NCBI GenBank assembly: GCA_965218235.1
Contig: OZ244595.1
Coordinates: 96,108 to 160,107 of the forward strand
DNA length: 64,000 nt
Direction of reading: 5' to 3'
Source of the DNA: Thermomicrobiales bacterium
GTDB taxonomy: Bacteria; Chloroflexota; Chloroflexia; Thermomicrobiales; UBA6265
Shown: positions 3,093 to 50,975 of the stretch, piece after piece
Layout: every line of letters begins with the position of its first letter
How positions within the stretch are numbered: position 1 is the first letter of the stretch
Translations under genes and position numbers: made by a program
The notes under the pieces: generated by a model
Database searches by the model: none
Told to the model about the DNA's origin: nothing
The model's input: the letters and a program-made list of their open reading frames with translations, nothing else

Positions 3093-3992
3093 TCAGGCCA
3101 GTTGCCGCAGCCAGCCACGAAATTCGCCCGCTACCGTCAGGGCAGTCGTGAGCCGCCGGCCGGCCGGGCCAGACGCGGCTTCGATCGCGCCTTCGACCAC
3201 GGGCGGCGTTCCGGCCAGGAACTCGATGACCGTCCACAACTTCGCCAGGAACAGGTGCCGTGTCTCGATGCCTCCACCCTCACTTGACATCGAAACGTCA
3301 GCCGCTCGATAGGCGTCCCGAACACGATCGAACTCGTCCAGCGTTGGCAGACCAGGGAGGGTGATCGCGACGTCGAGCGCAGGGTGCCCGAGGCCAATGC
3401 GCTCCCAGTCCATCAGGACGAGTTCGCCGTCGCGCGCAAGGCCCCAGTTCAGCGGGTTCGGGTCGCCCGAGATCGGCCCCAGCGGGACGAACAGCGGCGC
3501 GGCCTCCTGACGCAGCGTCGCCAACCGTCGACCCAGGTCCGGATCGTTGCCGAGCCAGCGGAGCGCGGACTGACCCATCGGACCGGACCACGCTGGCTGA
3601 AACCGGGCCGGCAGGTCGTCAAGCGTCGCCGGTGGCAGGCGATGCAGACGGCGCAGCGTCGCCATCACCGCCGGGTCGGCCAACCAGCGTCCAAGGGGCA
3701 GCGGGGACGGAATGTCTTCCAGCAGCAACCAGGTCTCGTCGCCGGCCCTGACCACTCCATGGCAGTCGGGGATGCGGATCCCTCTGTCGGCGAAGACCGA
3801 GGCGAGGGTCAGGTAGACGCCCAGCTCGCTGGATGACGCGCCCACCTTGGCCACGAGCGTCCCGCCGGAACCAGCGACCCGAAAGACCCGGGCGCCACTC
3901 ATCCCGCCCAACGGATCGGTCGTCAGCGGACGGCCGACGATCTCGATGTCATGGATGCGACCGCGAACCGCTTCCGGCATCGTCCCGGTCAT
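3093..3992 (-). CDS. phosphotransferase enzyme family protein (APH/choline-kinase-like fold)
   Basis: The LVLMDWERIGLGHPALDVA region resembles the catalytic/activation segment of APH-type kinases. There is a 4-nt overlap with the upstream amidohydrolase gene. Confidence 0.7.
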   Translation of the reverse strand: MTGTMPEAVRGRIHDIEIVGRPLTTDPLGGMSGARVFRVAGSGGTLVAKVGASSSELGVYLTLASVFADRGIRIPDCHGVVRAGDETWLLLEDIPSPLPLGRWLADPAVMATLRRLHRLPPATLDDLPARFQPAWSGPMGQSALRWLGNDPDLGRRLATLRQEAAPLFVPLGPISGDPNPLNWGLARDGELVLMDWERIGLGHPALDVAITLPGLPTLDEFDRVRDAYRAADVSMSSEGGGIETRHLFLAKLWTVIEFLAGTPPVVEGAIEAASGPAGRRLTTALTVAGEFRGWLRQLA

Positions 3993-14766: not shown

Positions 14767-15070
14767 CTCGTCGCTGGCGACCGGACAACGCCAGTGAATC
14801 CGGCTGTTACGTGCGCGGCCACCCGGCCGCCGGTATCCGGGTTCGCCTCGTGTCCAGTTCGCCTGGCTCGTTGGGCGTTGTGAAGACCCGTGGTCGGTAG
14901 GATTTCCTGGCGAACTGAAGGCCGTCCAAATGGCTTCAAAGACTATCTGCGCATTTGCAGGACGGCAACGATCCTGAGCCCGAATCGCTTGACCGCGGCT
15001 GCGGCGGGGCGAACCGGGCCGGGGTCCATTCGATACCGTACGACCGGTAATCAGCGGGACCTGCTACTCA

Positions 15071-16090
15071 CTACTCGCCGACCGCGGCCGGCCGGCGAGG
15101 CGCCTTGTACGACACCAGGAGGGCGTCCGGGATCACGTCATTGACCGGCTCGCCGGGCTGGACCCGGACCGGCCCGTCGCCCGCCATGACGACCAGGTCG
15201 TCGCCGTCGCGGCCGATCACCTCTCCGGCCTGGACCCCGAACCGGACGTAGGGAGCCTCCGCCTCTGGGACCGGGGCGACCATCAGGACGAGCCGGGCGT
15301 GCCCCTCGATGGCAGCGCGGGCCCGGGTCTCGACGAGGTTCAGGGCGATCGCCCGACGGCGGAGGGCGTCGCCTGGCAGCCGCCAGTCCAGCCAGTGGTC
15401 GTCGGGCGTGAATCCGGCGGCGTAGGTCGCGGCTGAGTCGTCCTGCTCCTCGCCCCGCTCGCCCCGCGCCGCGCGGGCCACGCCCTCGTCGAGTGCCGCG
15501 ACGATCAGCTGGTCGTAGAGCGCACGGACCGACTCGATCGTGGGTTCCTCGGGCAGCGGCGCCTCCTGCACGCTGAGGGTCGGCCCGGCGTCGAACTCCG
15601 GCGCCATCCGGTGAAGGGCCGCCCCGATCGTCGGGTCGCCCTCGTAGATCATCCGGTGCGGATTCGGCCCCCGGAACCGGGGGAGCGGCGCCGGATGCAG
15701 GTTGAGCGCTCCAAGCGGCGCGACACTGAGAAGTGCGTCCGGCAACCGGTACGGGAAGGTGTAGGACAGAATCAGATCGGGCTTCGCGGCGGCGATGATC
15801 GGAGTCGCCCAGCGGAAGCGGGTCGTGATCAGGATCTCCGTTCGCGGTGGAGCGGCCGCGACGACCTGGCGGTAGCCCAGATAGGTCCGTGGAGCCGGGC
15901 CTGGCGTCGTGACGAGCAAGACGATCTCATGCCCCCGCGACTCGGCCCAGTCCCGGACGAGCCGGTACGCCTCAGGCTCGACGTGGAACGTCGCGATCCG
16001 CAGCCCCTGCCGTCCGGCCCCGTTCCTCACCCCGTTACTGGCCCCGTTGCTGGAAATCGTCAACGCCCCGTACCTCAGATCCGACCGCAC
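15071..16090 (-). CDS. formyltransferase family protein (methionyl-tRNA formyltransferase-like)
   Basis: ALNLHPAPLPRFRGPNP matches the HPSLLP..RG-type motif with Asn/His, and an Asp lies in EFDAGP. A C-terminal domain is present. Confidence 0.75.
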   Translation of the reverse strand: MRSDLRYGALTISSNGASNGVRNGAGRQGLRIATFHVEPEAYRLVRDWAESRGHEIVLLVTTPGPAPRTYLGYRQVVAAAPPRTEILITTRFRWATPIIAAAKPDLILSYTFPYRLPDALLSVAPLGALNLHPAPLPRFRGPNPHRMIYEGDPTIGAALHRMAPEFDAGPTLSVQEAPLPEEPTIESVRALYDQLIVAALDEGVARAARGERGEEQDDSAATYAAGFTPDDHWLDWRLPGDALRRRAIALNLVETRARAAIEGHARLVLMVAPVPEAEAPYVRFGVQAGEVIGRDGDDLVVMAGDGPVRVQPGEPVNDVIPDALLVSYKAPRRPAAVGE

Positions 16091-16286
16091 GAATTACCCA
16101 ATATGCTGGACATGGTGACGCAATACGGGTCCCGTAACAAGTCCGGCATTGGTGGACGGCGAGCCGGCCCCAGCCTCCTCCTCAGCTCAGGTTCGTCCCA
16201 TTGATCCTCACCGGAAGGGGAGGCGGAAACAGTCCGCCGCTCAACGAGCGATTCCCGGAGAGCGGCCGCCGGACTTGTTACGGAAC

Positions 16287-16359
16287 CCTCCCCATCCGTC
16301 CTCCGAGCGAGGCGCGACGTCGTCGCGGCGAGCGAAAGACGAGATGGAGAGGGATGGGG
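16287..16359 (+). repeat. C-rich/G-rich intergenic hairpin element, copy B
   Basis: CCCTCCCCATCCGTCCTC ... GAGATGGAGAGGGATGGGG are imperfect inverted arms around a GC-rich core. Confidence 0.45.
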
Positions 16360-16366
16360 CAGAGCG

Positions 16367-18247
16367 CTACTCCAGAAGGTGCCGCTCGAAGAACGCGACC
16401 GTGTCGCCATAGGCCTTGAGCTCGTTGGACCGCTTCGTGAAGCCGTGGCCCTCGTCCTCGTAGACGTCGTACGTCACGTCGACGCCACGCTCCCGGAGCC
16501 GCTCGACGATCTGGTCGCTCTCCGGCTTCACGACGCGCGGGTCGTTCGCCCCCTGGATGACGAACAGCGGCGCCCGGATCTGATCGACATAGGTGATGGG
16601 CGAGCGCTCCATGAGGAAGTCGACCTCCGTCTCCGGATCGCCAACCCAGGCTGTCATCATCCGGCGCCACGTCGGCGGGACAGCCTTCGCGAAGGTGACG
16701 AGGTTGGACGGCCCGACGATGTCGACCGCCGCCGCCCAGTACTCCGGCAGCCGGCTGACGCAGCTCAGCGTCGCGAAGCCGCCGAACGATCCGCCGTAGA
16801 CCCCGAGGCGATCGCCGTCGACCCATTCCAGGCCGCGCAGGTACTCGGCGGCCGCCCGGAAGTCCTCCAGCTCGGCGCCACCCCAGTCGTGGTGGATCCG
16901 CTTCTGGTATCCCTTGCCGTACCCCGTGCTGCCCCGGACGTTCGGCGCCATCACGCCGATCCCCCGGCTGAGCAGGTATTGGTAGAGTCCTACGCCGTAG
17001 TTGGCCCGCTCTTGCGCCTCCGGCCCGCCGTGGATGCTGAGCACGACCGGGAATGGCCCCTGGCCGGCCGGGCGATACAGCCAGGCGGGAACTTCCAGCC
17101 CGTCGTGCGTCCGGTACCGGATCAGCTCCGGCCGGATCATCGTCGCCGGGTCGATCCCGCCGAGCATGCTCTCGGTGAGCTGCGTCAGCGTTCCCGAGCG
17201 AAGGTCGAGCGTGAAGACCTCCGGGGCGCTGTCCGGCCGGCTGAGCAGGAACGCCAGCACCGGCGCCCCGTTCGCTCCGACCAGCGTGCCGATCACGCCG
17301 GGCGGCACCTCCGGCAAGGAGACGGCGGTCGCGTCCGTCAGCGAGCCGGACGGGACGCCGCGCTTGCCAAGGTCATGCACGTCGAGGCGACTGACGCCGT
17401 CCTCGTTGACGACGATCGCGAGGTAGCGTCCGCTGGAGGCCGTCGCGACGAGTTCGACGTCCCAGTCGGGCGTGAGGAGGGGCCGTCGCTGCCCGGTCGC
17501 GATGTCGAGGAAGGCGAGGCCGGTGAACTCCCGTCCCTCGTCCGTCTGAACGAAGTACCCCGAGCTGTCGCGGGCCCAGGGACCGCCGATGAAGATCGCG
17601 TTTGCGTCGGCCGGCGTCAGGACCTGTGCGGAGCCGGATGTGAGGTCGATCACCCCCGGCCGGATGTCCATGTTGGAGTGCCCCTGTCCGTAGGCGATCT
17701 TCGTCCCGTCGGGCGACCAGCTCAACCCCTCATTGAGCTGCCCATCGGCAAGCGGTCGACCCGCCTCTGTGCCGTGCAGGTTGCGGATGATGATGTCGAG
17801 ATCGGTGTCGAGCCGGTCGTTTGCAGAAATCAGGACCTCGCGGCCAGACGGGGAGAAGGGCGACTCGGCCAGGAAGGCCTGGACGTTCTCTCGCCCAAAG
17901 ATCTCGACCGGCGCTCCCCCCGTGATCGGCAGCCGGTAGATCCGCGTGAACTCGTCGCCGGCCCGGTCGGCCGAAAACACCAGCGTCTGGCCGTCCGGCG
18001 AGCAGGCGACGAGGCGTACTGTCTGGTCCTCGAACAAGGTGAGCTGGCGGGCGTATCCACCCGTCGCCGGTTGCCGCCAGAGGTTGAACTGCCCGGAGAC
18101 GTTGGTCGAGTAGACGACCTCCGTCCCGTCCGGTGTCAATGCCAGCGTCGGCTGGTAACGCCGGGTGGCCGCGTACTGGCTGAACGGGGCGTGGGCCCGA
18201 TCTGGCGCCGCCGTTTCCGTCTGTCGCTCACTACCCCGCGCAACCAT
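16367..18247 (-). CDS. S9 family serine peptidase (prolyl oligopeptidase/acylaminoacyl-peptidase type) with N-terminal beta-propeller
   Basis: It has the nucleophile elbow GGSFGGFAT, C-terminal catalytic Asp/His regions (GANDPRV, EGHGF) and TolB-like repeats N-terminally. The ATG at 18247 has GAGGAA 7 nt upstream; the track start is at 18307. Confidence 0.9.
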   Translation of the reverse strand: MVARGSERQTETAAPDRAHAPFSQYAATRRYQPTLALTPDGTEVVYSTNVSGQFNLWRQPATGGYARQLTLFEDQTVRLVACSPDGQTLVFSADRAGDEFTRIYRLPITGGAPVEIFGRENVQAFLAESPFSPSGREVLISANDRLDTDLDIIIRNLHGTEAGRPLADGQLNEGLSWSPDGTKIAYGQGHSNMDIRPGVIDLTSGSAQVLTPADANAIFIGGPWARDSSGYFVQTDEGREFTGLAFLDIATGQRRPLLTPDWDVELVATASSGRYLAIVVNEDGVSRLDVHDLGKRGVPSGSLTDATAVSLPEVPPGVIGTLVGANGAPVLAFLLSRPDSAPEVFTLDLRSGTLTQLTESMLGGIDPATMIRPELIRYRTHDGLEVPAWLYRPAGQGPFPVVLSIHGGPEAQERANYGVGLYQYLLSRGIGVMAPNVRGSTGYGKGYQKRIHHDWGGAELEDFRAAAEYLRGLEWVDGDRLGVYGGSFGGFATLSCVSRLPEYWAAAVDIVGPSNLVTFAKAVPPTWRRMMTAWVGDPETEVDFLMERSPITYVDQIRAPLFVIQGANDPRVVKPESDQIVERLRERGVDVTYDVYEDEGHGFTKRSNELKAYGDTVAFFERHLLE

Positions 18248-18403
18248 CTCGTCGTTCCTCACGTCATCGCCCGGATATCCGCTCGCAACGTTCCCCGGTC
18301 GATTCAACCAGCAGCATACCGTGCGGAGCGAGCCAGCGGGAGTCGCCCCAGATCCCGTGATGCATCACGAACGCTCTTGGTCGGTTTGAAACCTCGTGGC
18401 CGT

Positions 18404-19234
18404 TCACGCCCGAAGCGGAAAGCCCAGCCCCAGGCGACGCAGCGAGGCGTGGCGGCCCTGGCCGATGACGAGGTGGTCGAGGACGTCGATCCCGAGGAGC
18501 TCGCCGGCGGCGACGAGCTCGCGGGTGACGGCGACGTCGGCCCCGGAGGGCGTCGGATCGCCCGAGGGGTGATTGTGGACGATCACCATCGCGACGGCGT
18601 TGTGCCTGATCGCCTCGCGGAAGATCTCGGCCGGCCGGACCGGGGCGCCGTTGACGCTGCCCTGGTAGACGGTCCGGATCGCCAGCACCTGATGCTTGGT
18701 ATCCAGCAGCACGATCCGGAGCTGCTCCTGCCCCAGCGCCGCCATCTCGACCCCGATCAGGTTGATGACATCGTCCGGCGTCGTTATCTTCGGCCGCTGG
18801 TCCGGAGCTAGCGCGGCGACGCGGGAGGCCAATTCAAAGACGGCGCGGAGCATTGTCGCCCGGGCCGGGCCGACGCCGCGGATCGCTGCCAGCTCGGTAA
18901 CGTCCTGGCGGGCCAGCCCGGCCAGCCCCCCGCATTCGAAGAGTAGCCGCTGCGAGTAGTCCAGCACCGACTCGCCCTTCATCCCGGTTCCGAACAGGAT
19001 GGCCAGCAGCTCCTGGTTGGAGAGCGCCTGCGACCCGCGCAGGACCAGCCGCTCGCGCGGCCGCTCGTCCTGCGCCATCTCCTTCAAACCAACCCGGTAG
19101 GCCGGTGTCTGGGTTGCCGCTGGAGAAGCAGGGACGGAGAGGACGTCGATCTCCTGGTCGTTCTTGCCGATCGCGGTGTCAGCTACGGTCCGCCTGCCGC
19201 GGGCGGTCGCCTTCGGCGCTGGGTAGCGGTCCAT
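18404..19234 (-). CDS. radC: RadC-family JAMM-motif protein
   Basis: ERPRERL, LSNQELLAILFGTG and HNHPSGDPTPS are present. The gene starts 3 nt after the stop of the upstream DtxR-family gene. Confidence 0.9.
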   Translation of the reverse strand: MDRYPAPKATARGRRTVADTAIGKNDQEIDVLSVPASPAATQTPAYRVGLKEMAQDERPRERLVLRGSQALSNQELLAILFGTGMKGESVLDYSQRLLFECGGLAGLARQDVTELAAIRGVGPARATMLRAVFELASRVAALAPDQRPKITTPDDVINLIGVEMAALGQEQLRIVLLDTKHQVLAIRTVYQGSVNGAPVRPAEIFREAIRHNAVAMVIVHNHPSGDPTPSGADVAVTRELVAAGELLGIDVLDHLVIGQGRHASLRRLGLGFPLRA

Positions 19235-19237
19235 TGG

Positions 19238-20014
19238 CTACCGCCCAGCCGACTCGGCCGACTCGGCCGACTCGGCGTCAGGCGATGCATCCGGCGTCAC
19301 GACGACGTAGACGATCCGGGCCAGCGGGGCGCCGATGACATGCTCCTCGGCGCCGACCAACAGACGGAACGGTCCTTCGAACGGGAGCCGCTCCCGGAGC
19401 TGGACGCGCTGACCGGGGATCAGGCCGAGCGAGCCGAGATAGCGGAGCTGCTCCGGGTCCCGGTCGGAGACCTGCTCGACCGTGGCGACCTCCCCGACGG
19501 CGAGATCACTCAGGCGGCGGTTGGACAGCGCCGGCATCTCCCCCTCCGCCGTCGGGATCGGGGCCCCATGCGGGTCGAACGTCGGGTGGCCGAGCGCCCG
19601 GTCGATGCTCCGCTCGAGCTTGTCGGAGAGCAGGTGTTCCAGCCGCTCGGCCTCTTCGTGGACCTCGTCCCACGGGTAACCCAGCGACTCGGCCAGATAG
19701 ACCTCCAGCAGGCGGTGGTGCCGCAGGACCTCGAGCGCCACCCGCTCACCGGCCTTCGTCATCACGACGCCGTGATACCTGGTGTGCTGGAGCATCTTGA
19801 GCTCATCGAGGCGCTTGACCATGTTGGTGACCGATGGCCCGGAGATGCCGAGCTCATCGGCCAGCCGCTGGGTCGTGACCGGACCACCGTCGGCGTTGAG
19901 CCGGTAGACGGCCTTGAGGTAGTCCTCCATGGCCGGCGTGATCCGGGGGCGCACCTCTGCGGGCGCACCCGTCTCGGGCTCATGCATCTGACCGATCCTG
20001 TCCGTTGACTCCAT
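19238..20014 (-). CDS. DtxR/MntR-family metal-dependent transcriptional regulator with C-terminal FeoA-like domain
   Basis: MEDYLKAVYRL, the ISGPSVTNMVKRL HTH and the HEEAERLEH metal-site region are present, with a C-terminal SH3-like LSDL..GEVATVEQV. The start is ATG 20014 or 20026. The tail (AES)x3 comes from a 9-bp tandem repeat. Confidence 0.85.
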   Translation of the reverse strand: MESTDRIGQMHEPETGAPAEVRPRITPAMEDYLKAVYRLNADGGPVTTQRLADELGISGPSVTNMVKRLDELKMLQHTRYHGVVMTKAGERVALEVLRHHRLLEVYLAESLGYPWDEVHEEAERLEHLLSDKLERSIDRALGHPTFDPHGAPIPTAEGEMPALSNRRLSDLAVGEVATVEQVSDRDPEQLRYLGSLGLIPGQRVQLRERLPFEGPFRLLVGAEEHVIGAPLARIVYVVVTPDASPDAESAESAESAGR

Positions 20015-20262
20015 GGTCCCTCGCATGGGCGTCCCATCGCGGCCCGGGCGCGGCCGAAGTGGTCTGGCCGGTGGGTGGTGGCGATAGGCGATTATCGCAT
20101 GCGTTCTCGCACCAATGCCCATCGCGGACCCGGAGGCGCGGGCGTCGCGGCCGGCCGCGATGGCCACCCCGTCCGGCGTCGCGGGCAGTTCGTCGCCGGA
20201 AACCCGCGCATCGAAACCACGCGAGCTATGTTGCGCTCTAGGTCGCGAATCAATACAATCAT

Positions 20263-20278
20263 ATGAATAACAATTCAT
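20263..20278 (+). promoter_or_regulatory. candidate ArsR/SmtB operator (ATGAAT-AACA-ATTCAT)
   Basis: This is a perfect 6-4-6 inverted repeat in an AT-rich patch, 32 nt upstream of the arsR ATG. It resembles TGAA-N-TTCA-type SmtB/CzrA operators. Confidence 0.5.
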
Positions 20279-20309
20279 CTCTGAGATTCCGTCTCACCTG
20301 GAGTTGTCC

Positions 20310-20720
20310 ATGCCACGGCCACGCAAAGCCGACCAGTTGATTCCCCCCTTCGACCTGGACAGTTGCCCGGACCGTATCGTCCATGTCGAAGCCGTGCGAG
20401 CCGCCCGGGCGTCGCTGCCCGACGGCGGAGTACTCGGGAATCTCGCCGACTTCTTCGCGGCCCTGAGCGACCCAACCCGGCTCCGGATCGTGGCGGCCCT
20501 GGCGCATCAGGAACTTTGCGTCTGCGACGTCGCGGCCACGGTTGGGATCTCGGAGTCGGCCATCTCCCACCAGCTCCGGACACTGCGCCAGCTTGGTCTG
20601 GTCCGGACGCGGCGGGAAGGGCGGCGGGTCTATTACGCCCTGGATGATGACCATGTGAGCGATCTCTACCGGCAGGGGGTCGAGCACGTCGCGCATCGCG
20701 ACGAAGGAAGGAAGAACTAG
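20310..20720 (+). CDS. ArsR/SmtB-family metalloregulator
   Basis: ELCVCDVAATVGISESAISHQLRTLRQLGLV carries the CVC metal motif and the wHTH. GGAG lies 7 nt upstream of ATG 20310. Confidence 0.9.
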   Translation: MPRPRKADQLIPPFDLDSCPDRIVHVEAVRAARASLPDGGVLGNLADFFAALSDPTRLRIVAALAHQELCVCDVAATVGISESAISHQLRTLRQLGLVRTRREGRRVYYALDDDHVSDLYRQGVEHVAHRDEGRKN

Positions 20721-23231
20721 GTGGAAACGCAAGGACGATCCACCCCGGTTCACGACCACGACCATGACTATGACTATGACGGCGCTGACGAAATCGTCGC
20801 CGCGCCCGTTGCGACGGGTGAAACGACCTGCCGGCTGGATGTCAGCGGGATGGATTGCGGTGACTGCGCCAAGACCATCGACGCATCCCTGACGAAGATG
20901 CCCGGCGTGCAAATGTCGCGGACCAGTTTTGCCGGCGGGACGGTCGATATTGCCTACGACCCCACGATCATCGAGCCGCCGGCACTGCGCGACCGGATCC
21001 GGTCGCTCGGCTACACGATCGCAGCGGAGCCTGCGAAGTCAGCAGCGAACCATCCCTGGGTGTTTGATGTCACTGGGATGGACTGCGCCGACTGCGCCCG
21101 CACGATCGAATCGGGCGTCCGTCGCCTGCCCGGCGTCGCCACGGCCGCGATCAACTTCGGCGCCGCGACGCTGACCGTGACGCCGGCGGATCTCGGTCTC
21201 CAGCGGGATGCCGTCGTCCGTGCGGTCTCGAGCGCGGGTTATCAGGCGACGCCGAGAGCTGAGACCGGCTCTGCCCGGACCAATGCCCCGGCGGACGTGC
21301 CATGGTGGCGCCAGCGGCGGATCATCGAAGTCGCTCTGGCGACCATCCTCTGGCTAACCGGATTCGTCTCCGAGCGGGCTGGCGCCAGCCTCGCCGTGGT
21401 CGCCGTTCCGTTCGTCGGTGCAATGATCCTGGCCGGATACCCGGTCGCCCGCGCCGGCTGGTTCGCGCTCAAGGCGCGCCGGGCGGACATGAACCTGCTC
21501 ATGACCGTCGCGGCCGTGGGAGCCGTCGCCATCGGTCGGTGGGACGAGGGCTCGTCGGTCCTGATCCTGTTCGCCATTGGCCTGACGCTCCAGAACCTCA
21601 CGCTCGACCGGACCCGGCGCGCCCTTCAGGCACTGATCAAGCTGGTTCCCGCCGAGGCCCGGTTGATCCGGAACGGCGTCGAGCAGCTCGTTCCGGTCTC
21701 CGATGTTCAGGTCGGCGAGAGCGTCTCGGTCCGACCAGGCGACCGGCTCCCGGTCGATGGTCTAATCGTGACGGGGTACACCTCGGTCGATCAGGCCTCG
21801 ATCACCGGCGAGTCGATTCCGGTCGAGGTCGAGCCAGGCAGCACGGTCTACGCCGGCAGCATCAATGGTGACGGCGCGATCGAAGTCCGCTCCACCAAGC
21901 CCGCCACCGACACGACCCTGTCCCGGATCATCCACCTCGTCGAGGAAGCGCAGGCGTCGAAGGCTCCCGCCCAGGCGTTCGTCGACAAGTTCGCCGCAAT
22001 CTACACGCCGATCGTCATCGCGGCGGCGGCGATCATCGGGCTGATCGTTCCCGTCTTCACGGGTGATTTCCAGCAGTGGATTTTCCGCGCGCTGATCCTC
22101 CTCGTGGTTGCCTGTCCCTGCGCCCTGGTCATCTCGACGCCTGTCGCGCTCGTCGCGGCGATCGGCTCGGCATCCCGCCGGGGGGTGCTGTTCAAGGGCG
22201 GCATGGCCATCGAGTCCCTCTCCACCGTTCGCGCGATCGCGTTCGACAAGACGGGCACTCTGACCGAAGGCCGCCCGGAAGTCGTCGATATCGTTCCGTT
22301 CGGCAACGACTCTCCATCGACGCTGCTGGCGCAGGCCGCGGCGGTCGAGCAGCAGGCTACCCATCCAATCGCCCGGTCGATCGTGACGGAGGCCGGGCGC
22401 CGCGAGATCGTCATCCCGGCCGGCCGCGAGGCGCAGACCATTCCCGGCAAGGGCGCCCGAGCGACCATCGGGAACGAGACGATCCTCGTCGGCAGCCGGC
22501 GACTGTTCGGCGGGCTGCCCGAGCCGGTCGAGCAGCGGCTCCAGGCCATGGAGCAGGACGGCAAGACCGGGATCCTGATCGGAACGGCCGACGGCGTGAC
22601 CGGCATCATCAGCGTCGCCGACCCAGTCCGGCCCCAGAGCCGCGACGCCGTTGCCCAGCTCAACCACCTTGGTCTCCGGACCATCATGCTCACCGGCGAC
22701 AACCGCTTCGTCGCCGAACGGATCGGCGGCGTGGTCGGCGTGACGGACATCCGGGCGGAACTGCTGCCCGCGGACAAGGTCACGGCCATCGACGATGCGC
22801 TCAGGCAGAGCCCGGTGGCGATGGTCGGTGATGGCGTCAACGACGCGCCCGCCCTGGCTCACTCGACCGTCGGGATCGCGATGGGCGGAGCGGGATCGGA
22901 TGTTGCCATCGAGGCGGCCGACGTCGCGCTGATGGGCGACGAACTGGACGAGGTACCATTCGCGGTCCGACTGGCCCGGAACACGATGTCGATCATCCGG
23001 CAGAACATCACCGCATCGATCGCTGTCAAGGTCGTCTTCCTGGTCCTGACTTTCACTGGGATCACCAATCTCTGGCTTGCCGTCCTTGCTGACACCGGCA
23101 TGGCGTTGATCGTGACCTTCAACTCCCTCCGTCTGCCCCGGACCACTCGCCAGCGGCCCAACTCGCCGTCGACACCGATCGCATCGTTCGAGCCGTCCAC
23201 CAGCCGGCCCCAGTCGGCGGCGGCTGACTGA
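20721..23231 (+). CDS. heavy-metal translocating P1B-type ATPase (Zn/Cd/Pb-type, CPC motif) with two N-terminal HMA domains
   Basis: There are two GMDC(G/A)DCA HMA motifs, a TM CPC (ACPCALVISTP), DKTGTLT, GDGVNDAPAL and a His/Asp-rich N-terminus HDHDHDYDYD. The GTG start immediately follows the arsR stop. Confidence 0.92.
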   Translation: METQGRSTPVHDHDHDYDYDGADEIVAAPVATGETTCRLDVSGMDCGDCAKTIDASLTKMPGVQMSRTSFAGGTVDIAYDPTIIEPPALRDRIRSLGYTIAAEPAKSAANHPWVFDVTGMDCADCARTIESGVRRLPGVATAAINFGAATLTVTPADLGLQRDAVVRAVSSAGYQATPRAETGSARTNAPADVPWWRQRRIIEVALATILWLTGFVSERAGASLAVVAVPFVGAMILAGYPVARAGWFALKARRADMNLLMTVAAVGAVAIGRWDEGSSVLILFAIGLTLQNLTLDRTRRALQALIKLVPAEARLIRNGVEQLVPVSDVQVGESVSVRPGDRLPVDGLIVTGYTSVDQASITGESIPVEVEPGSTVYAGSINGDGAIEVRSTKPATDTTLSRIIHLVEEAQASKAPAQAFVDKFAAIYTPIVIAAAAIIGLIVPVFTGDFQQWIFRALILLVVACPCALVISTPVALVAAIGSASRRGVLFKGGMAIESLSTVRAIAFDKTGTLTEGRPEVVDIVPFGNDSPSTLLAQAAAVEQQATHPIARSIVTEAGRREIVIPAGREAQTIPGKGARATIGNETILVGSRRLFGGLPEPVEQRLQAMEQDGKTGILIGTADGVTGIISVADPVRPQSRDAVAQLNHLGLRTIMLTGDNRFVAERIGGVVGVTDIRAELLPADKVTAIDDALRQSPVAMVGDGVNDAPALAHSTVGIAMGGAGSDVAIEAADVALMGDELDEVPFAVRLARNTMSIIRQNITASIAVKVVFLVLTFTGITNLWLAVLADTGMALIVTFNSLRLPRTTRQRPNSPSTPIASFEPSTSRPQSAAAD

Positions 23232-24201
23232 TGGCACACAATCACGCAAGCGCGGGCGCTCAGAACCGCGGCCGCCTGCGGATCGTCTTCCTGCTGACCG
23301 CCTCGTACATGGTGATCGAGTTCATCGGAGCCGCGATCTCCGGCAGTCTGGCGCTCCTCGCCGACGCCGCCCATATGCTGACGGACGTGGGGGGTCTCGG
23401 CCTCGCATTGCTGGCAATCTGGTTCGCCGCGCGGCCAGCGACCACGGGACACAGCTACGGGTTCTATCGGACCGAGATCCTCGCGGCGATGGTCAATGGG
23501 CTTGTCCTCCTCGGCATTGGAATCTACATCCTGTACGAGGCCTGGAAACGCTTCTCCAACCCGCCCGAGGTCGGCAGCGTCACCGTCATTATCGTCGCGA
23601 TCTTCGGCCTCACGATCAATGTGACCGGGGCGATCCTGCTCCGCAGCGGCTCGGCCGAGAGCCTGAACGTTCAGGGCGCCTTCCTCGAAGTCGTGGCGGA
23701 CCTGCTGGGCTCGATCGGCGTCATCGTCGCCGGCGTGATCATGCTGACGACCGGGTGGTGGTACGCGGACCCAATCTTCTCCATCGTCATCGGACTCTTC
23801 ATCGTCCCACGGACGTACCAGCTCCTCAAGGCGCGGTCCTCATCCTCATGGAAGGCACCCCGACCGGGATCGACCCAGTCGCGGTCGAAGCGACCATCCT
23901 CGCCGATCCAGATGTGGAGAGCGTCCATGATCTACATGTCTGGAGTATCACGTCGGGTCTTGCCGCAATGTCGAGTCATGCCCGCATTTCCTCGTCAGCC
24001 GACGGCGACGCCGTGCTGACCCGCCTGGGCTCTGCCCTGACCGAGTCGTACGATCTTCACCACACGACAATCCAGATAGAGCAATCGCCCCTGCCAGAGG
24101 AGATCTATCACGAGACGGGCAACGAACCGGAACCAGGCAGGATCACCGCGGCTCACGGGCATGACCACCCAAGGGAGTCACCTGACACCCAGACTGCCTG
24201 A
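23231..24201 (+). pseudogene. czcD: cation diffusion facilitator (CzcD-like) interrupted by a frameshift near 23831-23836
   Basis: Frame A (23231..) encodes the TM domain up to ...IVPRTYQLLK. Frame B (..24201) encodes AVLILMEGTPTGIDPVAVE...VHDLHVWSITSG, the CDF C-terminal domain. One extra G in AAGGCG(G)CGGTC would restore a single ORF. Confidence 0.8.
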
Positions 24202-24222
24202 CGCTGGGCACCATTCAGTCCA

Positions 24223-24248
24223 CCGGGCTGCGTTCCGACGCAGCCCGG
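24223..24248 (+). terminator. hairpin after the metal operon
   Basis: CCGGGCTGCG-ttccga-CGCAGCCCGG is a 10-bp perfect stem, 22 nt after the frame-B stop. There is no U-tract. Confidence 0.45.
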
Positions 24249-24390
24249 CAAGATAGGGAACCTCCCGATTGACGGGCCGAACGACGAGAACCGGCGTCTC
24301 GGCCCGCGGCTCGACCAGGGCGGTCCTGGCATGGTGTAGGCTGCCCGGTACAGCGTTGATGGGACCAAGTAGCGGCGGTCCCCGGGTCAC

Positions 24391-24617
24391 AGCGAGTCGC
24401 CGGCGGTGGGAGGGCGACACCCGGACCGGCCGTGAAGACCTCCCGGAGCGCGGCGCACAATGCCGGAGACCGTGGCGACTCGCCCGGTTTCGGCTCAGGC
24501 TCCGACGGTTCGCCTCCGTTATTGGGCCTCAAGACCGCGCCTGCTCCTCGCGCGGTGAAGTGCGGTGGCACCACGGGCCGCTCCCTCGTCCGCATGCCGA
24601 GGGAGCGATCGTTTTTT
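24391..24617 (+). promoter_or_regulatory. T-box riboswitch leader (tRNA-Asp-type) with intrinsic terminator
   Basis: The basal helix is GCGAGTCGCC (24392-24401) paired with GGCGACTCGC (24474-24483). The T-box-like core CGGTGGCACCACG (24562-24574) matches 10 of 12 fixed positions of GGGTGGNACCGCG by my count. The terminator is CGCTCCCTCG-9 nt-CGAGGGAGCG plus TTTTTT (24579-24617). The leader ends 34 nt before the aspS ATG. Confidence 0.7.
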
Positions 24618-24650
24618 CGGGACTTTCCGTCCCGGGAAAGGCGGTGTCTC

Positions 24651-25952
24651 ATGGAGCGCGTCTGGTCCACGAACCTCATCATCCACGCCGGGCGGCCCGT
24701 TCGCCTCGCGGGCTGGTTACACCGGTATCGATAGCTGTCCCACGTCGGCTTCCTCGTCCTGCGGGACGCACGAGGGCTCGCCCAGATCGTCGTCGACGAC
24801 CCGGAAACGGCGGCCCAACTCGGTCGGCTCGCCAATGAGTCGGTCCTATCGATCGCGGGACAGGCCGTCGCGAACCCCCAGGCACCGGGCGGTGCCGAAG
24901 TCCACGAGCCGGCGGTCACGGTCCTCTCGGAGGCCATTCCGCCACCGTTCGACCTGTTCCGTCCGGTGCTCGCCGCCCAGCTCCCGACGATCCTGGACCA
25001 CGCGCCGGTCGCCCTGCGGCACCCGGCGGTCCGGGCCCGGCACCGGCTGGCGGCGGTGCTGACCGAGGGATTCCGGGCAGCGCTGACAGCGGACGGCTTC
25101 ACGGAGATCCACACGCCGAAGATCGTCGCGGCGGCGACCGAGGGCGGCGCCAACGTCTTCCCGATCGACTACTTCGGCCGGACGGCTTATCTCGCCCAGA
25201 GCCCGCAGCTCTACAAGCAGGTCATGGTGGGCGTCTTCGAGCGGGTCTTCGAGACCGGTCCGGTCTTCCGGGCCGAGCCGCACGACACGCCCCGGCACCT
25301 CAACGAGTACATCTCGCTCGACGCCGAGATCGGCTTCGTCGCCGACGAGCGTGAGGTGATGGCCGTCCTCAGCCAGACACTCCGGTCAATGTTCGAGCGG
25401 CTGCCGGACCGGCTGGGCGCCGACCTCGCCCTCGCCGGCGTGACCCTTCCGACCATCCCAGACGAGATCCCGGCGATCCACTTCACCGACGCCCGCGACC
25501 TGATCTCCGGCGGCCTCGGCGACGAGCGGGAGCGGCACGAACCAGACCTCTCACCGGCCGGCGAGCGCTGGCTGGGCGAGTGGGCGCTGCGAACCCACGG
25601 CTCCGACCTGCTTTTCGTCACCGGCTACCCGATGAGCAAGCGCCCGTTCTACACCCATCCTGATCCCGATCAACCGGGTTTCTCCCGCGGATTCGACCTG
25701 CTGTTCCGCGGCCTCGAACTCGTCACCGGCGGCCAGCGCCTCCACCACCTCGCCGATTACCTCGCCGCCCTGAGCGAACGCGTAATGGACCCGGAACCGT
25801 TCGGCTGGTACCTCGACGCCTTCCGGCACGGGATGCCGCCCCACGGCGGCTTCGCGATCGGCCTCGAACGCCTCGTCGCCCGCCTGACCAGCCAGGCCAA
25901 CCTCCGGGAGGTGACGCTGTTCCCGCGGGACACCAACCGCCTCACCCCGTAG
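24651..25952 (+). pseudogene. aspS: type-2 (archaeal-like) aspartate--tRNA ligase with an in-frame TAG at codon 28 (24732-24734)
   Basis: A single frame runs from ATG 24651 to the stop at 25952 (433 codons). The N-terminus is MERVWSTNLIIHAGRPVRLAGWLHRYR*LSHVGFLVLRDARGLAQIVV (OB-fold motif). Class II catalytic motifs are FRAEPHDTPRHLNEY and GGFAIGLERL. The track shows only 24966..25952. Confidence 0.8.
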
Positions 25953-26037
25953 TCAGCTGAAAAGACTGCGGCCCATCCACTCGAGCATGAGTCTCCAACA
26001 ACCTCAAGCGGCACAGGCCTCGTCCGTAGGGACATGG

Positions 26038-26081
26038 CTCTCGCTTCGCTGGCCTGGTCCACGCCGCCAGCGAAGCGAGAG
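26038..26081 (+). terminator. 16-bp perfect hairpin downstream of aspS
   Basis: CTCTCGCTTCGCTGGC-12 nt-GCCAGCGAAGCGAGAG lies 86 nt after the aspS stop. There is no U-tract. Confidence 0.4.
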
Positions 26082-26237
26082 GTGCTGCACCGCGAAGCGG
26101 TCCCGGTCTTCAGGAACAACGTTTCTGATGTGGAAGACGCGCCAACTCTGCACGAAGTGCCTCGCGTCGCCACGAAAGGGGGTCAAGTCGCGCCCCTCGG
26201 CACAGTTCAGTGGGAAGGCGAAGCCGACCAGCAGATG

Positions 26238-26300
26238 CCCCTCTCCGGGCGGTGAAGCACCGCAGTGCCGAAACCGAGCCGGGGAGGAGTTGGGGAGGGG
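26238..26300 (+). repeat. C-rich/G-rich intergenic hairpin element, copy C
   Basis: CCCCTCTCCGGGC - short inner hairpin - GAAACCGAGCCGGGGAGGAGTTGGGGAGGGG. It is nearly collinear with copy D. Confidence 0.55.
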
Positions 26301-26399
26301 TCTGTGCGCGACCAGGGCGCCGCGATGTGACACCTCGGCTTCAATGTCGGGCCCGCAAGCCTCGCCCCATGGAAAAGCACCTTCCAGCAACAAACGTGA

Positions 26400-27200
26400 T
26401 CAGATCGCGCCGACCGACCCGGCGTCGACCCGGTAATTGGATCCATTCACGAACGAGGTCCGGTCGGAGCAGAGGAACACGATCACGTTGGCGACCTCGT
26501 CCGGGGTGCCGCGCCGCTTGAGGTCGATCCCCGGCCGCTCCTCCCGGAGGAAGCTCTGGATCGCCTCGTCAACGCCGGTCCCCTCCTCCTTCGCCCGCTT
26601 GTCCATCATCGCGTCCGTCATTGGCGTCTGGATGAAGGCTGGCGAGACGGCGTTGACCAGCACGCCCTCCGGCGCGTAGGTCCGTGACAGGCCCTTGGAC
26701 AGCGCGAGGATGCCTGCCTTGGCCGAGCAGTACGGAATCTCGTTTGGGTAGGGCTGGATGGCGTCCTCGGAGGCAATCAGGACGATCCGGCCCCAGCCGC
26801 CCGTCCGCAGTGCCGGCAGAAAGGTGCTCACCAGCCGGACCGGCCCCATCAGATCGGTCTCGATCGTCTTCACCCAGCCGGCGTCGTCGATCTCGTGGAA
26901 CATGCCCTGGGCGCCCGTGATCCCGGCGCACTGGACGAGGATGTCGATGTCGCCGATGGCTGCCTGCACCTTCTCCGAAAGCGTCGCGAGCTGATCGAGC
27001 TTCGTGATGTCGGCGGCGAAGGCGTGCAGGCTCCCCTCGGGCGCGGTGAGCTGGGCAGCCGCCGCGTCGAGTTTGCCCTGATCGATGTCAGTGACGACGA
27101 CCGTCACGCCCTCCTCCAGCAGCAGCCGGGCGGTGTGCCAGCCGATACCCGAGTCGGCGCCAGTGACCAGCGCCTTGCGTCCCTTGATTCCCAGATCCAT
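26400..27200 (-). CDS. SDR family oxidoreductase
   Basis: The start MDLGIKGRKALVTGADSGIG and the YCSAK catalytic motif are present. The track ORF extends to 27284. Confidence 0.88.
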   Translation of the reverse strand: MDLGIKGRKALVTGADSGIGWHTARLLLEEGVTVVVTDIDQGKLDAAAAQLTAPEGSLHAFAADITKLDQLATLSEKVQAAIGDIDILVQCAGITGAQGMFHEIDDAGWVKTIETDLMGPVRLVSTFLPALRTGGWGRIVLIASEDAIQPYPNEIPYCSAKAGILALSKGLSRTYAPEGVLVNAVSPAFIQTPMTDAMMDKRAKEEGTGVDEAIQSFLREERPGIDLKRRGTPDEVANVIVFLCSDRTSFVNGSNYRVDAGSVGAI

Positions 27201-29252: not shown

Positions 29253-29792
29253 ATGCCAGCTATCCTCTCCTCAACGATCGGATGGACGCGGTCGCGCGTT
29301 CTGATCCTTCTTGCGGTCGCGGCGATGGTCCTTGCCGGGCTTGGTTCCCCGGCGCTCGGGGCGCAACCCGACTCCACTCCGGTTCCTGGCGGCGTCGTCC
29401 GGGAAGTGCTCTCGTCGGGCGACCCGGCCAGCGCCCCGGGCGATGTCCTGGAACTCGTCCGGTACACCATCCCGGCCGGCACCAGACTCCCAGCCCATAC
29501 CCATCCCGGAATGCAGGTCGCCCAGATCGTCTCCGGCACCCTCTCCTACACCGTCCTCGAAGGGACGGTCCCGGTCACCCGGGCCGCCAGCGGGATGGTC
29601 GAGTCGGTGACGGCGGGAAGCGGCGAGGTCGAAATCAACCCGGGCGACTCGTTCTACGAGGCCGAGGGGGTCATCCACTTCGGCCAGAACGCTGGAACCG
29701 AGCCGGTGGTAATCCTGGTCGCCTCGCTCTTCGAGATCGGGATGCCGCCCGCCCACCTTGTCGGAACGCCCGTCGCGACGCCGGCCGCTTAG
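29253..29792 (+). CDS. secreted cupin domain protein
   Basis: A signal-like N-terminus (LILLAVAAMVLAGLG) is followed by the cupin motifs PAHTHPG...HFGQN. Confidence 0.75.
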   Translation: MPAILSSTIGWTRSRVLILLAVAAMVLAGLGSPALGAQPDSTPVPGGVVREVLSSGDPASAPGDVLELVRYTIPAGTRLPAHTHPGMQVAQIVSGTLSYTVLEGTVPVTRAASGMVESVTAGSGEVEINPGDSFYEAEGVIHFGQNAGTEPVVILVASLFEIGMPPAHLVGTPVATPAA

Positions 29793-30018
29793 CGATCGTC
29801 GTCGCGCGCGGAGCCCATCTCGCGGGGGAGTGAGCTACCGCGTCGCTGGCCCGATCCGGCCGCCGAGCCGGTCTCGATGAACAACCGGTCACCAAATTTT
29901 CAGCGCCTCACGGTGCGGCGGACCAGCCAGCGAAGCGGGACGCGAGAGCGCGAGCCATGTCCCTGTGACCAACCGCACACGCAACGCCCGCGAAGTCGGA
30001 CGCTGGCGTCTTCCCGCG

Positions 30019-31002
30019 TCATACACCGTCCCTCCCTGCGGCATCACGGAGGACCTCGATCGCCGGGGCGAACGCCTCCATGTCGTCCGACGAGACGACG
30101 GCGTAGCTGAACCCGAGCGCCTCCCGCCAGCGGACCATCCGACCGGCGATCTCGTCCGGCGTCCCGATCGCGACAGCCGGCATCCGGTCGACATCGTCCG
30201 GTGTGATGTTGCGCCATCCGCGGTCCGCGATCACTCGCTCGGTCTCCCCGGCCCGATCGCCGGTGACGGCCAGCGACAGCACCGTACTGAGTTCGAGCGA
30301 CTCGAACCGGTCGCCGGCCCCCTCCCGGACCCATCCGACCTGCCGGGCGACGTGGTCCTCCCGCCGGAGCAGCGGGTCGTCCTCGACGACGCCGCTTGCG
30401 ACCGACGTCGTCAGGAAGCCGACGATGTCCGCGTGCCGCCCGGCGATCCGGAGCATCCGCGGGTGCCCGGCGCCGACCAGAAGCGGCGGCCGGGGCGACT
30501 GGACCGGCCGGGGGAACAGCTCGTGGTCGGTTATCCGATAGTGCTCCCCGCTGAACGAGAACGCGCCCCCGGCGAAGAGCCCCGTCAGGACCCGGAGGCT
30601 CTCCTCCAGCCGCGACACCCGGACCCCGTTCGCGTCGAACGTCAACCCGGCCTGCTCGTACTCGTTCCGAAGCCAGCCGGCGCCGATGCCGAGCTCCAGC
30701 CGTCCGCCGGACAGCAGATCAAGCGTCGCCGCCTCTTTGGCGAGGATCGCCGGGTGGCGGTAGTCGTTGCCGAAGACCAGCGTCCCGATCCGGAGCCGCG
30801 TCGTCACGGCCGCCACAGTCGCCAGCGCCGCGATCGGGCCGAGCTGAACGCCGAAGAAGTCCGGGGCGATGTGATCCCGGATCAGCAGCGTGTGAAAGCC
30901 GAGCGATTCGGCCCGCTGCGCCAACTCGACCAGCTCCGCCCCGTCTCGGACGCGCTCCACGATCACGCCGAACCGGAACGGCCGCGTCAATCGTCTTCCC
31001 AT
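30019..31002 (-). CDS. LLM-class F420-dependent oxidoreductase
   Basis: The luciferase-like pattern LSGGRLELGIGAGW is present. Length is 327 aa. Confidence 0.8.
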   Translation of the reverse strand: MGRRLTRPFRFGVIVERVRDGAELVELAQRAESLGFHTLLIRDHIAPDFFGVQLGPIAALATVAAVTTRLRIGTLVFGNDYRHPAILAKEAATLDLLSGGRLELGIGAGWLRNEYEQAGLTFDANGVRVSRLEESLRVLTGLFAGGAFSFSGEHYRITDHELFPRPVQSPRPPLLVGAGHPRMLRIAGRHADIVGFLTTSVASGVVEDDPLLRREDHVARQVGWVREGAGDRFESLELSTVLSLAVTGDRAGETERVIADRGWRNITPDDVDRMPAVAIGTPDEIAGRMVRWREALGFSYAVVSSDDMEAFAPAIEVLRDAAGRDGV

Positions 31003-50969: not shown

Positions 50970-50975
50970 CCGGAC

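Follow-up and report, generated by a model that had tools for sequence, protein, structure and literature searches.

An aspartate-specific T-box leader upstream of an archaeal-type aspS gene with an in-frame amber codon in Thermomicrobiales

Acquisition of an extra AspRS is rare in the bacteria surveyed so far and, where such an enzyme is present, it is a second copy (PMC4206432). Additional AspRS enzymes were reported as archaeal-type in Deinococcus-Thermus and were also found, mainly in Actinomycetales and in some Clostridia (PMC4206432). For the two cultured Thermomicrobiales, Table S1 of PMC4206432 lists one aspS each and no asnS. T-box leaders are modelled in Rfam as RF00230, with a gathering score of 93 bits, and the translational T-boxes collected in TBDB are for Ile only. 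For the AspRS2 enzymes of Thermus thermophilus and Deinococcus radiodurans, we know of no T-box control.

The window analysed here, a stretch of 64 kb in total, was the subject of an earlier note, which proposed a transcription-attenuating, Asp-specific T-box upstream of a type-2 (archaeal-type) aspS gene with one in-frame amber codon. This proposal is supported by the present analysis, with corrections to the extent of the leader and to its specifier (Table 1). The Rfam covariance model for RF00230, run in E-value mode, matched 24347-24596 over model positions 1-219 with 66.5 bits (E 2.9e-14), which is less than the gathering score. At gathering or default thresholds, Rfam gave no match in the entire 64-kb window and the T-box surfaced only in E-value mode; the cmsearch that had been proposed as a check is thus significant by E-value, but stays below the curated threshold. 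Among the homologous leaders, L062 (112.9 bits) and L004 (107.5 bits) scored above the threshold and L007 reached 92 bits, and six of the nine scored leaders, the one in the window included, had 40-67 bits. Comparative evidence settles the question in favour of a genuine T-box despite the low score. Upstream of the archaeal-type AspRS gene, the same Asp T-box recurs in genomes from the Chloroflexota and Actinomycetota, more than 60 in all, and it shows strong covariation. Judged from its sequence, the leader belongs to the canonical class-I T-box riboswitches, a known regulatory design. Homology with all relatives starts at about 24337-24350. The leader had been drawn from 24391 onwards, which overlooked 45 nt at the 5' end, with the K-turn and the first half of Stem I; its true start is 24347. 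A simple promoter scan identified no sigma-70-like promoter.

Table 1. Features of the leader and of the aspS2 gene (positions in the 64-kb window).
Feature	Position	Strand	Basis
Complete T-box leader: Stem I, Stem II, IIA/B element, Stem III, antiterminator/T-box sequence, terminator	24347-24617	+	RF00230 match to 24596; terminator extends to 24617
Stem I: K-turn region, specifier loop, AG-bulge region (24388-95), distal helix (24396-401/24413-418), distal loop GGUGGGA (24405-11)	24353-24449	+	Covariance-model alignment
Specifier codon GAC (Asp), 3' side of the specifier loop (GAA-GAC-C, 24434-24440)	24437-24439	+	Covariance alignment and fold
Stem II with tip hairpin GGCG-ACU-CGCC (24474-84)	24462-24521	+	Covariance alignment; fold of 24450-24530
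Stem IIA/B-like element ACGGUUCGCCUCCGUUA	24505-24521	+	Covariance alignment; fold of 24450-24530
Stem III (ACCGCGC/GCGCGGU)	24534-24556	+	Covariance alignment and fold
Antiterminator with T-box sequence	24560-24595	+	Covariance-model alignment
Intrinsic terminator: stem 24579-88/24598-607, 9-nt loop, U6 at 24612-17	24572-24617	+	Fold, about -20 to -28 kcal/mol
Post-terminator hairpin UUUUUCGGGAC-UUUCC-GUCCCGGGAAA, overlapping the U-tract and the SD-like GGGAAAGG	24613-24639	+	Fold
aspS2, predicted archaeal-type non-discriminating AspRS, 433 codons, broken at codon 28	24651-25952	+	NCBIfam, Pfam, structure match
In-frame TAG, codon 28, from CAG (Gln) by C-to-T at 24732	24732-24734	+	Comparison with relatives
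Longest ORF after the stop: GTG start, 328 aa; retains the catalytic core but not the anticodon-binding OB fold	24966-25952	+	ORF scan

The minimum-free-energy fold of 24350-24452 had an architecture identical to that of Stem I in the covariance model. Over 64 leaders, 95.9% of the Stem I cells were paired and changes on both sides were seen in 20 of the 21 pairs, a level reached by none of 500 shuffles; slid controls gave 39-55%. The distal platform motifs are AGCGA at 24391-95 (AGVGA in the model) and the distal loop GGUGGGA (GGUGNRA in the model), both kept in relatives. The AG bulge and the distal loop motifs of Stem I would serve the docking of the tRNA elbow. A 10-bp basal helix had been proposed between 24392-401 and 24474-483. 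The complement is indeed perfect, but it was found only in the window and in the conspecific locus L081 and is lost in L082, L001, L002 and beyond. Lacking conservation, it was rejected as an element of the fold; the conserved, covarying fold pairs 24396-401 with 24413-418 instead.

The specifier loop of the window leader reads CCAAGUA/GAAGACC. Its GAC matches the amino acid of the downstream gene, AspRS, and the same position was occupied by GAC in 62 of 64 homologous leaders and by GAU, also an Asp codon, in one. The specifier had been assigned to 24467-24469, where the bases read AGA; the nearest GAC (24468-70) lies inside Stem II. The classic spacing GAA-N-GAC-A was seen in four leaders, and no spacer base separates GAA from the codon in 55 of 59 members of the subfamily. 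The base directly 3' of the specifier is C in the window (24440) instead of the conserved purine, and across the subfamily it was A in 28, C in 27, U in three and G in one.

Stem II is long and aligned poorly to the covariance model, with a large insertion; its tip hairpin is kept in relatives. Two antiterminator helices, A1 (24562-65/24590-93, extendable to 24560/24595) and A2 (24573-77/24585-89), flank a 7-nt UGGN-type bulge, UGGCACC (24566-72). The T-box core GGUGGCACCACG pointed out earlier was located at 24564-24575, with UGGC at 24566-24569, and the pairing of GUGCGG (24560-65) with CCGCAU (24590-95) agrees with the covariance alignment, in which 24562-65 pairs with 24590-93. Of 82 loci, about 64 have the core GGUGG(C/U)ACC(A/G)CG ahead of the gene, and the bulge among homologous loci was UGGC in 56 and UGGU in 11.

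The strong terminator of the earlier note, a 10-bp stem of about -20 kcal/mol followed by T6, was recovered in the same place and could be extended by pairing ACGG (24572-75) with UCGU (24609-12). It overlaps antiterminator helix A2 and its 3' strand, and the two folds are mutually exclusive. A simple terminator scan of the window found nothing, because the 9-nt loop and a 4-nt spacer fall outside the rules of the scan. A hairpin with a U-tract was present in 23 of 25 Chloroflexota leaders. In L081, L082, L001, L002 and L087 the terminator is identical or near-identical, and the hairpin that follows it has an invariant stem (CGGGAC/GUCCCG) and a varying loop.

From the established mechanism of the T-box family, tRNA-dependent antitermination would be expected at this leader. 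Stem I would present the Asp codon to the anticodon of tRNA-Asp. The free 3' end of the uncharged tRNA (N73-CCA, with G73) would pair with UGGC of the bulge and stabilise the antiterminator, which would block the overlapping terminator and allow RNA polymerase to enter aspS. A charged tRNA would be unable to stabilise the antiterminator and transcription would end at about 24617. G73 is the discriminator of bacterial tRNA-Asp; a tRNA-Asp gene in which base 73 could be read was found neither in the 64-kb window nor in 60 related loci.

The aspS2 gene is, as described before, a single frame of 433 codons plus a stop, with TAG as codon 28 in GWLHRYR*LSHVGFLVLRD. Its product matched the NCBIfam model NF003483 (aspartate--tRNA(Asn) ligase) with 532 bits against a cutoff of 353 and scored slightly under the cutoff of TIGR00458 (aspS_nondisc; 363.2 versus 368.4). 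The match to NF005052, archaeal asparagine synthetase A, had an E-value of 5e-39, although its 134 bits fall short of the cutoff of 368. By Pfam, an OB fold (PF01336) covers aa 17-91 and tRNA-synt_2 (PF00152) aa 115-427, without the bacterial GAD insertion. The best match among solved structures was T. thermophilus AspRS2 (1n9w, E 3e-115), which aligned end to end. His24 and Pro79 are as in this non-discriminating enzyme; T. kodakarensis AspRS has Trp26 and Lys85. At these two anticodon-loop positions, which may bear on discrimination, the sequence gives a hint of non-discriminating activity; a literature search on the role of W26H/K85P in specificity gave no match. The aspS2 product is predicted to be an archaeal-type non-discriminating AspRS, which would charge tRNA-Asp as well as tRNA-Asn, the charged tRNA-Asn feeding GatCAB. 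No gatCAB was found in the window, and neither the window nor the Thermomicrobiales loci contained a second AspRS or class-IIb synthetase. The best 120 matches included no named Sphaerobacter or Thermomicrobium orthologs.

Codon 28 is CAG in a 97.4%-identical relative, and L081 has C at the equivalent of 24732. All 12 closest orthologs have Gln at this codon and are intact and full length. Among the orthologs as a whole, the codon is highly variable (Q, R, E, L, V, H, M, K, D, A, P, I). A stop at codon 28 was seen in none of about 160 orthologous loci, and a metagenome scan for a second TAG allele gave nothing closer than L081. The AspRS frame of the window is interrupted by this TAG and, as written, the gene would yield a peptide of 27 residues. 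TAG ends about 17 of the 41 high-GC3 ORFs in the window, aspS itself included, so the code is not reassigned. Code reassignment and Pyl-type recoding were rejected, since TAG is a common stop here and no ortholog shares the internal one. Programmed recoding or reassignment would leave a stop conserved in orthologs or TAG unused as a terminator, and neither was observed.

The earlier note had offered three explanations for the stop, of which recent inactivation and a sequence error are both viable. The favoured reading, in which our confidence is evenly balanced, is that TAG at codon 28 is a genuine and very recent loss-of-function in a dispensable copy, whose leader and remaining gene have not decayed. 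Dispensability in this organism and a correct base call are presumed here. The window is otherwise clean, so a high error rate does not explain the stop. Across the 64 kb, no stop other than the aspS TAG interrupts a continuous coding signal, and the only split gene is a cation-efflux gene with a 1-bp frameshift in a homopolymer (GGG to GG, 23828-30). With these two lesions only, a generally error-ridden assembly was rejected. Missing downstream ADH and TetR genes were considered as a third lesion and rejected, as L086 has the same arrangement; this is, from the loci compared, a gene-content polymorphism.

The type of change also fits recent inactivation, C-to-T being the commonest spontaneous change. 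The aspS2 gene can be lost, because a syntenic Thermomicrobiales ortholog (L087, about 84% nucleotide identity) is a true pseudogene, with an internal TAG and a large serine recombinase gene in place of its 3' end. About nine of 163 loci have a disrupted gene, isolate genomes among them. In L066 both AspRS types are adjacent and the bacterial-type copy is the broken one, and the extra AspRS of other bacteria is likewise a second copy (PMC4206432). On the other hand, the 64-kb window holds no second AspRS, the gene would be essential if the single aspS of the cultured Thermomicrobiales encodes the archaeal type, and two lesions 902 bp apart could point to a local problem of assembly quality. 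A dN/dS comparison on the window branch (10 N and 11 S substitutions) gave no clear sign of relaxation; the numbers are small, and a tract of recombination that spans the 3' half of the gene confounds the comparison.

It is possible, and we put this forward tentatively, that T at 24732 instead arose as an error of sequencing, polishing or consensus calling, or that a minority allele entered the consensus of a metagenome assembly. The T-box and the gene would then be fully functional, and the deletion in the cation-efflux gene perhaps has the same origin. One base would account for the stop, the rest of the gene and the leader are intact and near-identical to L081, and the closest relatives are metagenome assemblies. 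The sole other lesion in 64 kb, in the cation-efflux gene adjoining aspS, lies 902 bp upstream of the TAG, a spacing with a chance of about 3%, and this clustering suggests a locally weak stretch of assembly. A real knockout would moreover be lethal if the single aspS of cultured Thermomicrobiales is of archaeal type. However, no further genes in the window are broken, stop-creating substitution errors are rare in consensus sequence, and aspS2 has truly been lost in L087. No motif-linked pattern was seen either: a base-calling artefact at CAGCTG was rejected, with four of six sites unchanged.

Suppression or read-through, the third explanation, is without positive support, because TAG is a frequent genuine stop in the window, the stop at codon 28 is absent from the orthologs, and no tRNA gene, suppressor or otherwise, is present in the 64 kb. 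It is improbable that the TAG is real and that some full-length enzyme is made by near-cognate read-through, for example by tRNA-Gln, or by a suppressor tRNA encoded elsewhere, with T-box derepression as compensation. Nearly any inserted residue should be tolerated at a codon as variable as this one, and the leader and the remaining ORF carry no additional damage. The stop stands in the context TAG-C, which Poole and co-workers reportedly found in 1995 to be the weakest termination context in E. coli. Basal read-through is typically well under 1%, however, and with no stop at codon 28 in the other loci nothing suggests a programmed event. The more specific proposal of a real amber buffered by low-rate UAG-C read-through, possibly with tRNA-Gln restoring Gln, and of an Asp T-box whose derepression partly compensates the charging shortfall, is similarly improbable. 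If true, a natural population could retain a nonsense allele of a synthetase under riboswitch control. A restart at GTG 24966, giving a catalytic core that has taken on a tRNA-independent function, for instance AsnA-like asparagine synthesis, is hardly credible: the ORF is open and archaeal asparagine synthetase A is a distant relative of the AspRS core (NF005052, below cutoff), but the N-terminal domain codons flanking the stop are intact and conserved, which argues against an evolved state, no relative has this architecture, and close orthologs are all full length. From 24735 onwards, GTG 24966 is preceded by no in-frame ATG, GTG or TTG.

The locus thus combines a known regulatory design with a known enzyme. 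It is of little importance in itself, with a textbook T-box and a one-base stop that shows no sign of programming. The practical value lies in the annotation of a GC-rich Asp T-box subfamily, which is unannotated because it falls mostly below the Rfam gathering threshold. One homologous sensor domain is joined to two expression platforms: in the Chloroflexota it is followed by a terminator, whereas the Actinomycetota use SD sequestration, and the latter adds an Asp example to the translational T-boxes. If the stop is real, the window gene and L087 document an ongoing loss of a second AspRS in Thermomicrobiales.

With the T-boxes of RF00230 the leader shares the K-turn Stem I, the specifier loop with its S-turn (AGUA/GAA), the AG-bulge, the distal-loop motifs, a Stem IIA/B-like element, Stem III, the 7-nt UGGN bulge and an overlapping terminator with U-tract; GAC is also the preferred Asp specifier in TBDB. 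It differs from canonical members in its sub-gathering score, in the spacer between GAA and the codon that the subfamily usually lacks, in the non-purine after the codon and in its long Stem II. Its host belongs to the Chloroflexota, not to the Firmicutes. The Actinomycetota homologs have an anti-SD (..CACCUCC..) opposite GGAGG and no U-tract, like the actinobacterial translational ileS T-boxes (e.g. Mycobacterium, Nocardia), whereas the window leader is of the terminator type. Unlike the shortened Stem I of the ileS leaders, that of the actinobacterial AspRS2 leaders is full-length with an internal specifier loop.

Clostridium acetobutylicum also has a T-box over an extra non-discriminating AspRS in a tRNA-dependent Asn pathway, as cited in a passage of PMC4206432. 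The window differs in its Asp specifier, its single-gene unit and the lack of gatCAB. The C. acetobutylicum leader, in the work of Saad et al. from 2012, is said to respond to tRNA-Asn and to control a multi-gene AspRS/GatCAB operon. The AspRS2 enzymes of T. thermophilus and D. radiodurans (1n9w, 3kfu) share with the window gene the absence of the GAD insertion and the His and Pro at the two anticodon-loop positions; they are intact, whereas the window gene is stopped at codon 28.

A T-box leader ahead of aspS2, the gene for an archaeal-type aspartyl-tRNA synthetase (AspRS2), had been proposed in an earlier note from the sequence, and this was borne out by a match to the Rfam T-box family RF00230 at 24347-24596 on the forward strand. 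The match spans the full model (positions 1-219; 66.5 bits, E = 2.9e-14, laxer filters on 24150-24750), though its score lies below the gathering score of 93; at Rfam default thresholds the whole 64-kb window gave no matches. The minimum-free-energy fold of 24350-24452 alone has the same Stem I architecture as the covariance-model alignment, and this agreement places the predicted specifier, GAC, as listed in the table.

Features of the T-box leader of aspS2 (window positions)
Feature	Position	Sequence or detail	Basis
Stem I	24353-24449		covariance-model alignment
K-turn region		part of Stem I	covariance-model alignment
Specifier loop	24365-71 vs 24434-40	CCAAGUA vs GAAGACC	covariance-model alignment
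Predicted specifier	24437-24439	GAC	alignment and isolated fold
AG-bulge-like element	24391-95	AGCGA	covariance-model alignment
Distal helix	24396-401 / 24413-418		covariance-model alignment
Distal loop		GGUGGGA, Stem I	covariance-model alignment
T-box bulge	24566-72	UGGCACC	
First antiterminator helix (A1)	24562-65 / 24590-93		
Second antiterminator helix (A2)	24573-77 / 24585-89		
Terminator stem	24579-88 / 24598-607	10 bp	
Terminator U-tract	24612-17	U6	
Post-terminator hairpin	24613-24639	UUUUUCGGGAC-loop-GUCCCGGGAAA	

The note had read the specifier at 24467-69, where the bases are AGA; the nearest GAC, at 24468-70, falls within Stem II. Its 10-bp helix (24392-401/24474-483) is a perfect complement, as described, and is not part of the conserved fold: among the leaders compared, those of the window and of L081, its conspecific, are the only ones to have the complement, and in L082, L001, L002 and every more distant one it is lost. 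It was ruled out as a leader element, 24474-84 forming the conserved Stem II tip hairpin instead. The T-box sequence, antiterminator and terminator were recovered as proposed. The terminator stem folds at about -20 kcal/mol with a possible ACGG/UCGU extension, and its 5' arm shares bases with helix A2, so terminator and antiterminator are mutually exclusive. The hairpin directly after the terminator pairs the U-tract with a Shine-Dalgarno (SD)-like GGGAAA; its stem is invariant and its loop different in each of L081, L082, L001, L002 and L087, and it might also affect translation.

The anatomy and conservation of the leader are read here from sequence, and we infer the tRNA-dependent steps because the mechanism of the T-box family is established. 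By that analogy, the leader should work in the known manner. Uncharged tRNA-Asp would be recognised by GAC in Stem I and its free 3' end would pair with UGGC, stabilising the antiterminator so that the polymerase runs through the terminator (about 24617); with charged tRNA, the terminator would be free to form.

Relatives of the AspRS2 protein were collected from genome and metagenome collections (163 loci). Upstream of the gene, about 64 of the 82 genome loci carry the core GGUGG(C/U)ACC(A/G)CG, and most others have a variant core. With a Stem I covariance model built on five close relatives, 64 leaders were recovered at E < 1e-4 (65 at E < 1e-3), all on the coding strand and just upstream of the gene. 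Across these 64, standard pairs fill 95.9% of cells and 20 of 21 Stem I pairs show changes on both sides, in an alignment that had been fitted to the model; none of 500 shuffles matched this pairing, and sliding the partner columns reduced it to 39-55%. Of the 64, 62 have GAC as the specifier triplet and one has the synonymous GAU; the classic spacing GAA-N-GAC-A is seen in four. Just 3' of the codon, 28 leaders have A, 27 have C, three have U and one has G, so the subfamily departs from the canonical purine there. There are 56 leaders with UGGC and 11 with UGGU. Rfam scores of homologous leaders run from 112.9 (L062) and 107.5 bits (L004), both above the threshold, through 92 (L007) to 40-55, a span which indicates that the low score of the window reflects divergence in GC-rich lineages and is no argument against T-box membership. 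In one leader (L068, 5630-5735) the specifier loop is GAAGAACC and not GAAGACN; under classic spacing it could present AAC (Asn), and it might sense tRNA-Asn.

The expression platform varies by phylum, the window belonging to the terminator class. In 23 of 25 Chloroflexota leaders there is a stable hairpin and then a U-tract, as there is in only 3 of 41 from Actinomycetota and other groups, where the SD is at least 75% paired in 23 of 41. Actinomycetotal loci (L012-L074; Micromonospora, Nonomuraea, Actinoplanes, Streptosporangiaceae and others) carry the same Asp T-box with full-length Stem I and an SD-sequestering platform, ..CACCUCC.. opposite GGAGG, lacking a U-tract and located some 60-75 nt ahead of the AspRS2 start. 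Translational T-boxes in the T-box database (TBDB) are catalogued for Ile only, in contrast to Asp here, and such leaders may be under-described.

The gene is, as the note stated, a single frame from ATG 24651 to 25952, with an amber at codon 28 (24732-24734) within GWLHRYR*LSHVGFLVLRD; it has 433 sense-codon positions and a terminal TAG. The ortholog alignment it had suggested for identifying the replaced residue gave Gln in each of the closest 12, which are 72-96% identical and all uninterrupted at 433-435 aa. L081, from a 1.86-Mb metagenome contig, is syntenic with the window and 97.4% identical to it over 14928-25952; it has CAG at codon 28 versus TAG in the window, a C-to-T change at 24732; the leader differs by a single base, at 24389. 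Over about 160 loci, the residue at position 28 is Q, R, E, L, V, H, M, K, D, A, P or I, and none of these loci has a stop there. TAG terminates about 17 of 41 high-GC3 ORFs of the window, aspS included, and is therefore an ordinary terminator here. By these comparisons the stop is a lineage-specific CAG-to-TAG change.

With about even confidence, we read it as a genuine and very recent inactivation of a dispensable copy. Substitutions polarised between the window branch (10 non-synonymous, 11 synonymous) and the L081 branch (7 and 16) gave no clear relaxation of constraint, the counts being confounded by a divergent patch over the 3' half of aspS. The window differs from L081 in a mosaic fashion, with patches of 4-15% on a background of about 1%. 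Patches of 5-15% lie at 17500-18000, 25000-25952 and 29500-31000, with eight differences clustered at 25658-25679; they look like recombination tracts.

aspS2 has been lost in at least one close lineage. The syntenic Thermomicrobiales ortholog in L087 (4001-6654; about 84% nucleotide identity, leader kept) has an internal TAG (AGC-AAG-CGC to CGC-TAG-CGG). In place of its last ~78 codons there is an oppositely oriented gene for a large serine recombinase (551 aa, Resolvase + Recombinase + Zn_ribbon_recom). This ortholog is a true pseudogene, and its 3' end points to integration of a mobile element into the gene. About 9 of the 163 loci are disrupted, isolate genomes among them. In L066, an Anaerolineae MAG, an intact AspRS2 is directly followed by a bacterial-type AspRS (both within 1767-4950) in which a conserved Trp position is occupied by an in-frame stop (..LACC*VIDFPLFEW..); this mirrors the window, where AspRS2 carries the stop. 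In the metagenome contig L136, the gene directly after AspRS2 is a second full-length class-IIb synthetase (2411-3700), about 30% identical to AspRS2 and possibly an AsnRS. The 64-kb window contains no second class-IIb synthetase.

A base-call or consensus error is a less probable reading. The aspS TAG is the only stop that breaks continuous coding signal in 64 kb in a reference-free scan, and a check of same-strand ORF pairs that overlap showed one gene to be genuinely split, the cation-efflux (CDF) gene at 23231-24201, immediately upstream of the T-box. Its Cation_efflux and ZT_dimer domains fall in successive ORFs in different frames. These two lesions apart, the window is thus clean. The frameshift arises from GGG-to-GG at 23828-23830 relative to L081, where the gene is intact (323 aa). 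The lesions lie in adjacent genes, 902 bp apart, with no other broken gene in 64 kb. A systematic C-to-T pattern at CAGCTG sites was not seen. Neither a recent knockout nor such an error would surprise a specialist. Functional read-through of the stop is improbable, and a truncated catalytic-core product, for which the first in-frame ATG/GTG/TTG past the stop is GTG 24966, very improbable indeed.

Homology to all relatives restarts at about 24337-24350, exactly where the T-box begins. The preceding ArsR/P-type ATPase (836 aa)/CDF metal-efflux cassette (20310-24201) is a variable island, present in the window and L081, absent in L086 and replaced by a ZnuA/ABC-3 transporter cassette in L082, L001, L002 and L087. 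ADH and TetR genes stand downstream of aspS in L081 and L082 and are absent in the window and L086; this shared absence was ruled out as a lesion and is a gene-content polymorphism. In their place is a 449-bp non-coding spacer (25953-26401; 64% GC, no Pfam match) with a perfect 16-nt inverted repeat (26038-53/26066-81). Further away, at 50000-52000, GC falls to 62-64% versus ~68% window-wide, with ORFs lacking the strong GC3 signal of their neighbours.

Acquisition of an additional AspRS was rare across 547 genera surveyed (PMC4206432); any such enzyme is a second copy, archaeal-type in Deinococcus-Thermus, with other cases mainly from Actinomycetales and some Clostridia. Table S1 of that survey gives one aspS, no asnS and one gatCAB for both Sphaerobacter thermophilus and Thermomicrobium roseum. 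The nearest relatives of the window protein are Thermomicrobiales (Chloroflexota), not Actinobacteria, and no named isolate proteins occur among the best 120 matches to a Sphaerobacteraceae ortholog. The product has an OB-fold anticodon-binding domain and a class IIb catalytic core (Pfam), scores 532 bits with NF003483 (aspartate--tRNA(Asn) ligase; cutoff 353) and falls just under the cutoff of TIGR00458. Its residues His24 and Pro79 are at positions which we take to set discrimination, a literature search giving no support for this. Among solved structures the top match is 1n9w (end-to-end alignment, E 3e-115), the AspRS2 of T. thermophilus, a non-discriminating enzyme sharing both residues, whereas T. 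kodakarensis AspRS has Trp26 and Lys85 there.
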